A DNA stretch of 5,704 bases from an uncultured Erysipelotrichaceae bacterium (GCA_964457525.1 CAYWGS010000098.1:1-5704); one strand, 5' to 3'. Shown: positions 2,322 through 5,704, counted from the first letter of the stretch. Numbers and translations are program-made. Notes: generated from the sequence alone by a model not told the origin.

Positions 2322-2345
2322 AAAAGCGGCGTTATAGCCGCTTTT
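2322..2345. terminator. Bidirectional rho-independent terminator shared by rubredoxin (+) and the flavodiiron gene (-)
   Basis: AAAAGCGGC (2322-2330), GTTATA loop (2331-2336) and GCCGCTTTT (2337-2345) form a perfect 9-bp stem with a GCGGC core. A U-run follows on both strands: TTTT on +, TTTTCTTTATT on -. It begins 5 nt after the rubredoxin stop and overlaps the flavodiiron stop codon (2344-2346). Confidence 0.75.
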
Positions 2346-3555
2346 AACTATTTAGGATTGATTCTGATATTACTTTAGCTAAATCATCTAATGCTTGCAT
2401 ATTATCTTCTTTAAGCGTTGATTTGATTAATAGAGGTTCTCCAATAATCTCAACGTTTTTCATCTTCTCTATCATTGTTTGAAGTTGTTCAAGTGTTTGA
2501 CCACCCCAAGTAGAATTAACAACCAATGAGAATTTACGATTTTGTAGATTCAAACTAGCAAATTCATGTAATAGGTTATTAATCTTATAAAATACATTTG
2601 TGTTATAGGTTGGTGTCGCAATAACAATATGACTGTATTTCCATGCTTCAGAAACTAAGTAAGAAGGATCTGTTTCAGAAACATCATAGACACGCATATC
2701 ACGTACACCATATTGGCCCATTCGAGTCGCAAGTGTATCCGCAACACTTTCAGTATTGTTATACATCGTCGCATAAATAATAAGTGCACTCTTTGTCTCA
2801 GGTACATAATGAGACCATTTATCATATTTATCTAAAATAAGTGCTAACTCTTCATTTCTGTACATCGGCCCATGTAATGGGCATATCATATTAATTACTT
2901 CATTGGATAGTTTTTTCATAATTCCTTGTACAGGAACACCAAACTTACCAACGATATTTGAATAATAACGTCGTGCTTCATCTAAATGATCTCTACGATA
3001 ATCCATCTCATCCGCAAAATAGGTTCCATTATGAGCTCCAAATGTACCAAATGCATCTGAAGAGAATAAGATATGATTCGTAAAATCAAGTGTCATCATA
3101 ACTTCTGGCCAATGAACCATTGGGGCGGTATAAAAACGTAATTTACGTGAGCCTAAATCAAGTTCATCTAAATCCTTCACAATCATGTAATTTTTCTTTG
3201 CGTCAAAATCATAAAACTGTTCAAAGAACTGAAATGTTTTTGCATTACCAATAAATTTAACATCTGGGTAACGACGAATAATTGTTTCAATATTCCCACA
3301 ATGATCCGGTTCCATATGATTAACAACCAAATAATCTAAGTTTCTTCCATTAAGCACTGCTTCAACATTGTCAATATAAAGTTGACTTATTGAACTATCC
3401 ACTGTATCGAGTAAACAAGTCTTTTCATCTACAATTAAATATGAGTTATAAGCTACTCCAAAACGTAATGGGAAAAGATTCTCAAAACGTTGAAGTCTTC
3501 TTTCGTTTCCACCTACCCAATGAAGTTTAGGCGCAATTTCATGTGTATTCTGCAT
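2344..3555 (-). CDS. fprA: Class-A flavodiiron protein (FprA-type O2/NO reductase; metallo-beta-lactamase-like diiron domain + flavodoxin-like domain)
   Basis: 403-aa ORF. SD AAAGGAG (complement of 3564-3570) lies 8 nt upstream of ATG 3555. The full diiron ligand set occurs in canonical order: H-x-E-x-D-H (NHMEPDHCG), PMVHWPE (His), SSDAFG (Asp) and CPLHGP (His). The C-terminal flavodoxin-like FMN domain is present (ALIIYATMYNNTE, ATPTYN, NSTWGG). Confidence 0.93.
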   Translation of the reverse strand: MQNTHEIAPKLHWVGGNERRLQRFENLFPLRFGVAYNSYLIVDEKTCLLDTVDSSISQLYIDNVEAVLNGRNLDYLVVNHMEPDHCGNIETIIRRYPDVKFIGNAKTFQFFEQFYDFDAKKNYMIVKDLDELDLGSRKLRFYTAPMVHWPEVMMTLDFTNHILFSSDAFGTFGAHNGTYFADEMDYRRDHLDEARRYYSNIVGKFGVPVQGIMKKLSNEVINMICPLHGPMYRNEELALILDKYDKWSHYVPETKSALIIYATMYNNTESVADTLATRMGQYGVRDMRVYDVSETDPSYLVSEAWKYSHIVIATPTYNTNVFYKINNLLHEFASLNLQNRKFSLVVNSTWGGQTLEQLQTMIEKMKNVEIIGEPLLIKSTLKEDNMQALDDLAKVISESILNS

Positions 3556-3626: not shown

Positions 3627-4340
3627 TTATGGATAATTAATATTCTTCTCATCCTTGAATTCTATTACTCTTTTATAATAGGCTTCTAATAAATCTTCTT
3701 CAAATGGTATTACTTCATTCTTATAGCCTATATCTTTTAAGAATGCTTTAGTAAATATTGGATTCATAACTAGAATCGGGCCTAAGCAATGTGTCCCATA
3801 AAAATTGTAATACTTAATTCCTTCAGGATCTAAGTCTTTATTAAACCCTATTCCACGTTTTAAGGTCAACCAAACAGGTAAATCACTTGTTGGATAAACA
3901 CGTGTAAATTGACTCTTAAATCCAACAAATTCATAACCATTATAATCAGCTAAAACATAAGAATTAAATCGATGCATTAAATCTTGTTTGCTATAAAAAG
4001 GAAAGATATCAAGTGCTGGAATTTCATTTCCATCTTCTTCAATTATCTTAGTCCCAAATAGTTCAAATGCATTTCCAGTTATTAGAAAATGAACATTATT
4101 CTCAATGAGTTCAATCAATCGTTTTTTATACGGTAATAATTTCTCAATAATAATCTTCTGAAAACGTTCGGTTGTAGGACCCATAAAAATCAAATCCACA
4201 TCATGATCGACAAAATAGGGTTTAGAATTCATATCTGTTTCGATAAATTTCGCATCTTTAAATGCTAGTTTAAGATAATCAATATTCCCCTTTTCGCCAT
4301 ATAAGGCCGCAACACATGGATAAAGTAGTTCTATTATCAT
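3627..4340 (-). CDS. gatD: GatD-like protein (CobB/CobQ-type GATase fold, partner of MurT); predicted catalytically inactive glutaminase
   Basis: 237-aa ORF that starts 2 nt after the murT-like stop, the canonical murT-gatD order. It is collinear with recalled S. aureus GatD: ALYGEKGNIDYL ~ NLYSDIGNIIAL, DLIFMGPTTERFQ ~ DIFFIGGGSDREQ, FLITGNAFELFG ~ GLTICGGYQFLG, VGFKSQFTRVY ~ VGFENHGGRTY, EGIKYYNFYGTHCLGPIL ~ EGIHYKNLLGTYLHGPIL. The fold-defining hydrophobic pattern is kept but the active-site residues are not (see findings). Confidence 0.85.
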   Translation of the reverse strand: MIIELLYPCVAALYGEKGNIDYLKLAFKDAKFIETDMNSKPYFVDHDVDLIFMGPTTERFQKIIIEKLLPYKKRLIELIENNVHFLITGNAFELFGTKIIEEDGNEIPALDIFPFYSKQDLMHRFNSYVLADYNGYEFVGFKSQFTRVYPTSDLPVWLTLKRGIGFNKDLDPEGIKYYNFYGTHCLGPILVMNPIFTKAFLKDIGYKNEVIPFEEDLLEAYYKRVIEFKDEKNINYP

Positions 4341-4342
4341 AC

Positions 4343-5704
4343 TTAAACTCTACTTTCTATTTTTCGAATTAAACGTTCACGAATAATCTTAGCTTCAGGA
4401 ATATTCTTTGTACCATTTAAAATATATATCGCATCAACGATATCCAGATTAACACAATCAACTGTCCCTAATTCTTCATAAGAATAGGAATATTTACTTA
4501 CATCAATACCTGCCATCTGAACACGAATCTTTAAATCTAGAACACGTTCACCACCACCAATGATTTGTTTAATATAATCCTGATTTAAATACTCAAAATC
4601 CGTATCAAAGTACCAAGCATTATTTTCACTTAAGGTATGATGTTCTGTATTCTCATTAATAAGTATAACAGCTGATTTTTGATGATTCTGTTTTCGAATA
4701 TAATCAAATACACGTGATGTCGCAACAGGATTCTGATCCTTAGTCATCATGATAATAATTTTCTTATCTTTTACTGTTACTTCATCAAATCTTGACTTAA
4801 CAATCTTCAACTTATTCAGCTGATCATTAATTTGACGTAGATTCAAACCAATTTTATACAAGAAAGTAATGCATGAAAGCAAATTATAATGATCTGTTAT
4901 ATTATCGCCAATTGTTTTAAAACGAACAATATTATTATCCAATTGAACTAATAATTCATTTTTATTGATATCAAGTTTAGCACTTACATCAGCTGAGATA
5001 GACTTAAAATCACAATTTGGACAATACACACGACCAATATGATGGTAACGGTTGAAATCATAAACTAAAGTATGATTGCACTTTGGACAGTTTACAAGAT
5101 CTTTAATTCGACTATCTTTTATTTCAATTTCATTTTCTATAGGTTCTAAACCAAAACTAATTCGATCATTCCCTTTACATAAAAATGAACTAAGTGGATC
5201 ATCCGCATTTACAATCAACTTCGTCTCTTTTGGAATATACTTCTCTAAAATATCAGTAATAAACTCCACATGCGCATTCCGGCGATAAGAATCTCTAAAC
5301 AAGTTTGTAACAATTAATGTATCCGGTTTAATATGTGGATAAATATACGGTGAAACGCGCTCATCTACTTCTAAAACAATATAATCTGGTTTGATTTTAT
5401 TACCCATAAGATTTGTTGCATTTACCATTGTCGTAATAATACCTTCACGAATATTACTACCCATAAGATTACTAACTACAGAGAAATTCGATTGAACTAA
5501 AACATCACTGATTAAATTTGTGACTGTTGTTTTTCCATTTGTTCCTGTAATAGCAACAAGATTATTCGGTTTTGGTACATACTTCAAAAAATTAGGACAA
5601 ATACGCATTGCAAGTGCACCTGGAAACTGAGTTCCATTCCTACCTAATTTCTTTAATAAAAATACAGATGATTTTGCGCCATATAAGGCAATATAGTATC
5701 GAAT
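4343..5704 (-). CDS. murT: MurT-like Mur-ligase family protein (lipid II isoglutaminyl synthase ligase-subunit homologue), 5'-partial at window edge
   Basis: The frame is open from the stop at 4343-4345 to position 5704. Manual translation upstream of the ORF-track Met (5608) gives IRYYIALYGAKSSVFLLKKLGRNGTQFPGALA-MRICPNFLKYV... This aligns with the S. aureus MurT N-terminus (AIHLAKLARKASRAVGKRGTDLPGQIARKV), so the real start lies a few codons beyond the window. Motifs present: P-loop ITGTNGKTT, LEVDE, TNLFRDSYRR (~TNFFRDQMDR) and NADDP. The MurT-specific Zn ribbon is also present: CPKCNHTLVYDFNRYHHIGRVYCPNCDF. The C-terminal DUF1727-like region (WYFDTDFEYL ~ WIYDADFEKL) is also present. Confidence 0.9.
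   Translation of the reverse strand: MRYYIALYGAKSSVFLLKKLGRNGTQFPGALAMRICPNFLKYVPKPNNLVAITGTNGKTTVTNLISDVLVQSNFSVVSNLMGSNIREGIITTMVNATNLMGNKIKPDYIVLEVDERVSPYIYPHIKPDTLIVTNLFRDSYRRNAHVEFITDILEKYIPKETKLIVNADDPLSSFLCKGNDRISFGLEPIENEIEIKDSRIKDLVNCPKCNHTLVYDFNRYHHIGRVYCPNCDFKSISADVSAKLDINKNELLVQLDNNIVRFKTIGDNITDHYNLLSCITFLYKIGLNLRQINDQLNKLKIVKSRFDEVTVKDKKIIIMMTKDQNPVATSRVFDYIRKQNHQKSAVILINENTEHHTLSENNAWYFDTDFEYLNQDYIKQIIGGGERVLDLKIRVQMAGIDVSKYSYSYEELGTVDCVNLDIVDAIYILNGTKNIPEAKIIRERLIRKIESRV

Follow-up and report, generated by a model that had tools for sequence, protein, structure and literature searches.

The window analysed here, a stretch of 5,704 nucleotides from an uncultured Erysipelotrichaceae-like bacterium (GCA_964457525.1, CAYWGS010000098.1:1-5704) whose proteins also occur in identical form on contigs of up to 126.7 kb, carries six gene calls, two of which form a minus-strand pair resembling murT and gatD, the genes for the ligase and glutaminase subunits of the complex that amidates the peptidoglycan precursor lipid II. 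The murT-like gene (4343..5704, -) encodes a Mur ligase middle domain followed by a MurT C-terminal domain, and the gatD-like gene (3627..4340, -) a protein of 237 residues with the fold of class-I glutamine amidotransferases but devoid of their catalytic residues, i.e. a putative pseudo-glutaminase. Both genes lie at the positions and on the strand given by an earlier reading of the same sequence (the first-pass annotation), separated by 2 nt (TAA-GT-ATG), and no terminator-like site was found within or between them. While the tight coupling described in that annotation holds, its statement that both open reading frames (ORFs) are full length does not apply to murT: the frame is open up to base 5704, the last base of the window, and proteins 99% identical to the window MurT (such as P0121) have 456 residues, so that the gene is cut by the window end and starts at codon 4, with its first three codons outside. 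We use full-length numbering for MurT; the 421-residue ORF described earlier begins at the internal Met36 (its Met1), and its Asn329 is Asn364 here.

Searches against all PDB chains with phmmer returned as close relatives only the MurT and GatD proteins of Staphylococcus aureus, Streptococcus pyogenes and Streptococcus pneumoniae. The GatD-like protein matched GatD chains at 1e-15 (1e-24 when a profile of the variant was used), the MurT-like protein matched S. aureus MurT (6gs2_B) at 3e-45 along residues 2-390 of the latter. The pair descends from MurT/GatD. For GatD, we compared the phmmer alignments with the PDB chains, alignments of a 15-sequence variant profile with the same chains, and MAFFT alignments with 120 and 269 homologues. 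The pairwise, profile, MAFFT and structure-based alignments were concordant on the substitutions that follow. At the nucleophile elbow (Thr88-Gly89-Asn90-Ala91; 4068..4079, -), Gly89 stands in the place of the catalytic Cys94 of S. aureus GatD (LITGNAFE in the window versus LTICGGYQ), Asn90 in that of the oxyanion glycine Gly95 and, shortly after, Glu93 in that of Gln98. In the segment Gly182-Thr-His-Cys-Leu186-Gly-Pro188 (3777..3797, -), Leu186 replaces the catalytic His189 (GTHCLGP versus GTYLHGP), with the Gly-Pro after it retained. The canonical GGG oxyanion strand has become Gly54-Pro55 (4176..4181, -), with a proline at its second glycine, the S. aureus Gly60 to which an oxyanion role has been assigned (PMC5871853), and the GFENHG strand that lines the glutamine pocket is exchanged for Val139-Gly-Phe-Lys142-Ser143-Gln144-Phe145 (3906..3926, -), a family signature in which Lys142-Ser143-Gln144 take the positions of the glutamine-contacting Glu147-Asn148-His149.

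The same picture emerged from the 269 GatD-like members. The Cys94 column is occupied by Gly in 250, Ser in 14, Asn in three and Ala and Cys in one each, and the His189 column by Leu (176), Ile (59), Val (11), Thr (8), Met (4) and His (1), Leu, Ile or Val together accounting for 246; no member has both the Cys and the His (0/269). An Asn occupies the Gly95 column in 256, the commonest residues in the Gly60 column include Pro (138), Ser (67), Ala (24), Thr (15) and Gly (9), and the signature columns hold Lys in 227, Ser in 209, Gln in 227 and Phe in 255 (VGFKSQF was invariant in two smaller variant alignments). In the AlphaFold model of the window protein, Gly89 lies at the strand-to-helix nucleophile elbow (strand 84-88, helix 89-95). 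The loss in the GatD-like subunit is therefore wider than the catalytic triad and extends to the oxyanion glycines and to the ENH strand that contacts glutamine. Two candidate replacements for the missing residues were considered and rejected: His184-Cys185, beside Leu186, as a shifted catalytic pair, most of the clade having Tyr-Leu there, and Thr88 as the nucleophile, an alternative register with a shift of one residue that the first-pass annotation had allowed for but that no alignment supports, the column being that of the buried Ile93 of the canonical elbow.

On the MurT side, the triad residue Asp349 of S. aureus corresponds to Asn364, within Ser362-Glu363-Asn364-Asn-Ala-Trp367 (4613..4630, -), where Glu363 stands for Arg/Ile348. 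The register is given by an invariant Trp three residues further on and a gap-free alignment up to DxDFE (SENNAW versus GRDTSW). Asn fills the Asp349 column in 119 of 120 MurT partners, and among 117 MurT-like sequences Glu363 is conserved at 100% and Asn364 at 99%. Glu363 itself was rejected as a substitute for Asp349, since this register leaves no room for it and a His to polarise is absent. The GatD and MurT alignments with S. aureus, S. pyogenes and S. pneumoniae thus concur in placing substitutions at all three triad positions on two polypeptides, as had been claimed from the sequence of the window.

As opposed to the glutaminase half, the ligase half is predicted to be catalytically complete. 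Pfam recognised MurT_C (64 bits, 1.2e-17, cut-off 25) and Mur_ligase_M (36.6 bits, 5.8e-9, cut-off 24) in the MurT-like protein, which consists of the Mur ligase middle domain and the MurT C-terminal domain without a UDP-binding N-terminal domain; it has the layout of the Mur ligase superfamily (a P-loop ATP domain and a Rossmann-like C-terminal domain), with the models for MurC/D/E/F, pMur and cyanophycin synthetase ranking below MurT. The ATP-binding P-loop GTNGKT (5528..5545, -) is identical to that of canonical MurT, and like Glu115, Asp117-Glu118 and Asn87 it is conserved at 100% in 117 clade members and shared with the three canonical MurT sequences. Asn137, Arg308 and Asn328-Pro329 are likewise present, the hinge Arg and the acceptor-contacting Asn are conserved at or near 100%, and all four cysteines of the Cys4 zinc ribbon (C209, C212, C231 and C234; 5012..5089, -) at 100%, so that the P-loop, Mur-ligase motifs and zinc ribbon are as intact as previously stated. 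The roles of these residues, including Mg binding by the acids, are known from the solved complexes (PMC6085368, PMC6113224).

Other positions in MurT distinguish the clade. In Glu115-Val-Asp117-Glu118-Arg119 (5357..5371, -), the residue after the Mg-binding acids is an Arg throughout the clade and Gly/Ala in canonical MurT. The loop facing GatD, which borders the proposed ammonia path (PMC6085368), is rewritten from FRDQMDRFGE to Phe139-Arg-Asp-Ser-Tyr-Arg-Arg-Asn-Ala-His148 (5270..5299, -), with S142, R145 and N146 conserved at 100%, A147 at 98% and H148 at 92%. His148 (5270-5272, -) is part of an active-site loop that has a Mg-binding His in MurC-F and a Glu in canonical MurT. The canonical side of this comparison comprises only three sequences, all of them Lys-type, and some of the apparently clade-specific residues may for this reason reflect the type of stem peptide. 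Elsewhere in the protein, Cys39-Pro40 (5594-5599, -) is 96-97% conserved where canonical MurT has an Asp. The window MurT ends in ...IIRERLIRKIESRV (4343-4390, -) and P0121 in ...IIREQKKKKIESRV, a difference that is possibly strain variation or an assembly error at an A-rich run. A 70-residue ORF antisense within murT (5076-5288, +) lacks homology support and is most likely spurious.

The GatD-like protein retains the GatD fold. Its AlphaFold model has a predicted local distance difference test (pLDDT) score of 95.9, and in Foldseek searches GatD structures made up the top nine matches, at full length and with template modelling (TM) scores of 0.77-0.84; the best was S. aureus GatD (6gs2_A, TM 0.83 over 237 columns). 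The lid loop, to which a gate role has been ascribed (PMC6085368), is retained as Tyr14-Gly-Glu16-Lys-Gly-Asn19 (4284..4301, -), corresponding to Y17, D19 and N22 of S. aureus; across the 269 members its columns hold Tyr/Phe in 237, Asp/Glu in 260 and Asn in 238. Gly59, Asp63 (as Glu) and Gln66 are also kept, as is an Arg that, when aligned with S. pyogenes and S. pneumoniae GatD, falls on Arg142, the residue that captures glutamine. The closest Pfam family is GATase_3 (PF07685), the CobQ/CobB-type domain, which scored 24 bits (E 3.3e-5) against a cut-off of 27 over residues 11-183, stopping before the His region; the variant is without the Cys and His that define active members of that family, and precomputed PF07685 matches are present in many more distant members of the clade.

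Equivalog models keep the variant apart from canonical MurT/GatD. The NCBIfam GatD models NF045636/NF052463 gave 65-69 bits against cut-offs of 400-450, and the MurT models NF045635/NF052464 173-174 bits against a cut-off of 800. Existing annotations of relatives (P0050, P0132, P0169; P0255, P0101) are discordant, JGI calling some 'lipid II isoglutaminyl synthase (glutamine-hydrolysing)' and NCBI listing the GatD-like protein as 'hypothetical protein'. The 'glutamine-hydrolysing' label is contradicted by the sequences, and the pair should not carry it. Five of the defining features that we tested fail, namely the catalytic Cys, His and Asp, the glycines of the oxyanion hole and the NCBIfam cut-offs.

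How widespread this state is was assessed in two ways. A profile search of 1.84 billion representatives yielded at least 316 clusters (50% identity) at E<=1e-30, and a GTDB scan with one genome per species, using the signature [EDQ][IFV]VGFKSQF derived from a nine-sequence alignment, yielded at least 170 species loci, a lower bound because the pattern is strict. Of the 170 loci, 80 were taken into the analysis of neighbourhoods and taxonomy. They were assigned to Erysipelotrichaceae, 'Clostridium sp. CAG', Clostridia, Oscillospiraceae, Acutalibacteraceae and Lachnospiraceae, all 80 derived from metagenome-assembled genomes (MAGs) or other metagenome-derived assemblies, the named sources were human, rabbit, goat, sheep, roe deer, chicken or mouse gut, and G+C contents ranged from 25 to 59%. 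The murT gene was directly upstream of the gatD-like gene in 78 of the 80 loci, and natural single-chain MurT-GatD fusions, also triad-less, were found in P0236 (737 residues), P0305, P0318, P0321 and P0411; the AlphaFold model of the P0236 fusion has a pLDDT of 91.6, a predicted TM score of 0.89 and a disordered linker at 476-495. Ratios of non-synonymous to synonymous substitution rates (dN/dS) against three relatives were 0.15-0.19 for the gatD-like and 0.08-0.12 for the murT-like gene. Taken together our results show that the triad-less state is conserved in a large clade of anaerobic Firmicutes from gut and rumen and is under purifying selection. In light of this selection, the intact GatD fold, the intact ligase residues, the fixed gene order and the fusions, we regard it as a different conserved state and not as decay, in line with the repurposing proposed in the first-pass annotation. 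That annotation had also named a finding that would speak against its view, namely that the variant be simply the standard form in many organisms with ordinary D-iso-glutamine (D-iGln) peptidoglycan; as to the first part, the variant is widespread (at least 170 GTDB species).

Compared with the MurT/GatD systems of S. aureus, S. pneumoniae, S. pyogenes and Mycobacterium tuberculosis, the pair shares the murT-gatD operon order, the Mur-ligase middle domain, Cys4 ribbon and MurT_C domain, a GATase_3-type fold with an extra C-terminal helix (TM 0.83), the ATP-, Mg- and acceptor-contacting residues and the lid loop. It differs in that Cys94, His189, Gly60/Gly95, Gln98, the ENH strand and MurT Asp349 are replaced and the GatD-facing loop of MurT is rewritten, with GatD identity at ~25% and a MurT bit score of 158. 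Published accounts describe the triad as highly conserved in MurT/GatD homologues, both known and predicted (PMC6113224, PMC5871853), and we found in the open-access literature neither a published triad-less GatD nor a link of MurT to group-B cell walls.

Two engineered S. aureus mutants carry the very substitutions seen here. With GatD C94G, lipid II is no longer amidated from glutamine, while NH3-dependent amidation at pH 8.5 is unaffected (Munch 2012, PMC3266927), and in MurT the D349N exchange leaves the protein folded but abolishes glutamine-dependent activity (Noldeke 2018, PMC6113224). MurT alone is inactive with any nitrogen donor, GatD being required (PMC3266927). Each mutant has one change, with the rest of the pocket canonical, whereas in the natural variant a whole alternative pocket is conserved. 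As the ligase half appears complete and the glutaminase half dead, and as the C94G and D349N precedents match the natural changes, the reading that we favour, at a probability of roughly 0.5, is that the pair forms a glutamine-independent complex that would amidate the alpha-carboxyl group that D-iso-glutamate (D-iGlu) carries in lipid II with free ammonia, GatD serving as an obligatory non-catalytic partner. Ammonia is abundant in gut and rumen habitats. We propose that the pseudo-GatD has been retained because MurT is inactive without GatD; it would position the C-terminal domain and loops of MurT and would probably be an entry or gate for NH3/NH4+ towards the acyl-phosphate, and the product would be ordinary D-iGln peptidoglycan.

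Such an arrangement would be akin to that of vertebrate carbamoyl-phosphate synthetase I (CPS I), whose glutaminase-like domain lacks the catalytic Cys and which uses free ammonia; human CPS1 (5dot_A) was among the distant fold matches of the GatD-like model in Foldseek. In both cases a class-I amidotransferase fold is kept as an apparently non-catalytic part of an ATP-dependent synthetase. CPS I, however, belongs to another synthetase family and is a single eukaryotic polypeptide, while the presumably dead subunit of the variant is encoded by a separate, translationally coupled gene that is fused to its partner in some lineages.

Several observations count against the favoured reading, above all against a mere scaffold, and hold our confidence at about one half. 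The canonical enzyme does not use ammonium at pH 7.5 (PMC3266927), so the variant would need some adaptation. Rather than being relaxed, the former glutaminase pocket has become conserved anew, with other polar residues (TGNA, Glu/Asp for Gln98, here Glu93, and the invariant VGFKSQF), the glutamine-capturing Arg is still kept within it, and this degree of conservation exceeds the needs of a mere scaffold. The earlier proposal of an ammonia-dependent enzyme with a scaffold pseudo-glutaminase is the best-supported reading, but the word scaffold says too little about such a pocket. The rewritten GatD-facing loop of MurT and the clade-specific residues near its active site that are invariant or nearly so (R119, H148, R334 and D337) point the same way. 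Finally, the check for a canonical pair reached +-10 kb per locus, and nearly all carriers are uncultured: searches for cultured ones that might be tied to a known wall chemotype gave MAG labels or no names.

The genes around the pair were compared across the 80 loci. Across lineages, no third gene accompanies the pair in these loci, and no additional ligase, racemase, decarboxylase or Fem-type neighbour is conserved. In many low-GC genomes the pair is flanked by aspS-mnmA and rlmN-stp-pknB-rsgA, the rlmN-stp-pknB cluster adjoining it in ~25 loci. In one lineage labelled Eubacteriaceae (P0206; L085:4682-13368), the pair lies between rodA-M23 peptidase-M50 protease and minE-minD-minC-PBP2-mreD-mreC, which is a clear cell-wall setting; the GatD-like partner of this lineage reads TGTA at the elbow and HKTQF in the signature and has Thr at the former His position. 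In the source genome (L081:5733-8586), the region directly upstream of murT-gatD holds, on the same strand, genes for S-adenosylmethionine decarboxylase (speD), spermidine synthase (speE), a HAD hydrolase and a small membrane protein of the MamF_MmsF type, which overlap or are separated by <=41 nt. The same order recurs in L002, L003 and L005, where the entire neighbourhood, including fab genes, is syntenic. We therefore rejected a polyamine link drawn from speD-speE, which is confined to this one Erysipelotrichaceae group. A second murT-gatD copy was not found within +-10 kb, the span scanned, in 87 loci.

A different amine could also be the substrate. The first-pass annotation had raised the idea, with the bridges of group-B peptidoglycans in mind, that the ligase attaches another amine to the D-iGlu alpha-carboxyl; it might be glycine, a diamino acid or a polyamine, bound or presented by the remodelled pseudo-GatD pocket. 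We consider this unlikely, although a number of features would fit. The re-conserved pocket has become more acidic (Gln98 to Glu/Asp, Asp63 to Glu) with its carboxylate-binding Arg kept, the clade-invariant R119 of MurT sits beside the Mg-binding acids and R334 and D337 follow the Asn-Pro loop, and His148 recalls the Mg-binding His of the amino-acid-adding ligases MurC-F. The latter likewise form an ATP-dependent acyl-phosphate on a peptidoglycan carboxylate for attack by an amine, but the variant lacks their N-terminal UDP-binding domain and is paired with a GatD-like subunit. Chemistry of the same type would underlie the attachment of glycine, diamino acids or polyamines to the D-Glu alpha-carboxyl by enzymes still without a gene assignment (in group-B walls, and with cadaverine/putrescine in Negativicutes), and some carriers bear the labels Erysipelotrichaceae or Eubacteriaceae, families with classic group-B taxa. 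Erysipelothrix was reportedly classed as B1-delta by Schleifer and Kandler in 1972. The peptidoglycan of Eubacterium is B2-alpha (PMC11382707), and polyamine substitution of the D-Glu alpha-carboxyl occurs naturally (PMC10628300). In the source genome, speD and speE are found just upstream of the pair. The computational results as a whole, however, do not support this alternative. The speDE linkage is limited to one syntenic group, no accessory gene of the kinds listed above is conserved across lineages, the clade reaches into lineages not known for group-B walls, and the same motifs are found in Oscillospiraceae, Acutalibacteraceae, Lachnospiraceae and 'Clostridium' MAGs. The cultured relatives of the Oscillospiraceae, Acutalibacteraceae and Lachnospiraceae carriers, where known, have type-A walls with meso-diaminopimelic acid (also PMC11382707). 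In addition, the effect of stem-peptide type mentioned above may account for some of the MurT residues, and in the solved complexes a long distance separates the GatD pocket from the ATP site of MurT (PMC6085368, PMC6113224).

It is highly improbable, in our view, that the complex is still a glutamine amidotransferase in which other residues of the GatD-like subunit, such as Ser143/Lys142 or Thr88, take the place of the canonical catalytic set. Lys142-Ser143-Gln144 is indeed invariant on the glutamine-pocket strand in the smaller alignments, Thr88 is near-invariant, the capturing Arg and the lid are retained, and 14 of the 269 members have a Ser at the Cys position. But it speaks against a cryptic glutaminase that the elbow has a Gly in 250 of 269 members, that the oxyanion-strand Gly is a Pro in about half of them, which removes a backbone NH, and that the triad site is without a conserved His or any other conserved general base; moreover, the adjacent Lys and Ser face opposite sides of a beta-strand (136-144 in the model). 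No class-I amidotransferase is known to us that functions in the absence of an elbow nucleophile. The C94S exchange leaves S. aureus GatD inactive (PMC6113224). There is also little to commend the view that the pair no longer acts on peptidoglycan precursors, being an inactive or regulatory remnant or acting on another carboxylate, or that it is a specialised paralogue beside a canonical murT-gatD, and we hold it to be quite unlikely. It would be in keeping with NCBIfam scores far under the cut-offs (69 versus 400-450 for GatD, 174 versus 800 for MurT), with neighbourhoods made up mostly of housekeeping and not cell-wall genes, and with a scan for second copies that covered +-10 kb around each locus. 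Against it stand the strong purifying selection on both genes, the retention of all ATP-, Mg- and acceptor-contacting residues of the ligase, the rodA / mreCD / PBP2 / minCDE context of one lineage, the 87 loci without a second copy within +-10 kb, and a survey in which MurT-bearing bacteria mostly had a single murT copy (PMC11915815).

MurT/GatD has been treated as a uniform, essential and glutamine-dependent drug target, and in the clade described here the glutaminase would be dead by every known criterion, with both subunits kept. If free ammonia is used, the complex would be a bacterial cell-wall counterpart of CPS I and a natural experiment on why MurT needs GatD. If another amine is used instead, the long-missing enzyme for substitution of the D-Glu alpha-carboxyl would have been identified, in what would be the first gene assignment for this substitution, or for the initiation of group-B-type bridges, in Firmicutes. 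Whether D-iGlu or D-iGln is present bears on cross-linking and on host NOD sensing of gut peptidoglycan.

Downstream of the pair, the window encodes a flavodiiron protein, a rubredoxin, a DUF1287 protein and an aminotransferase. The DUF1287 protein (1403-2068, -) has a poly-lysine N-terminus, one predicted membrane helix and a CHAP-domain match of 24.7 bits, under the cut-off of 26, and may be cell-wall hydrolase-like. The rubredoxin gene (2131-2316, +) and the flavodiiron gene (2344-3555, -), the latter with metallo-beta-lactamase-like and flavodoxin domains, form a divergent pair, and rubredoxin/flavodiiron pairs are typical for O2/NO detoxification in strict anaerobes. In the source contigs the rubredoxin is called as a protein of 53 residues, which makes the ATG at 2155 its probable true start. 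The 71-nt gap that separates gatD from the flavodiiron gene contains a perfect TATAAT.

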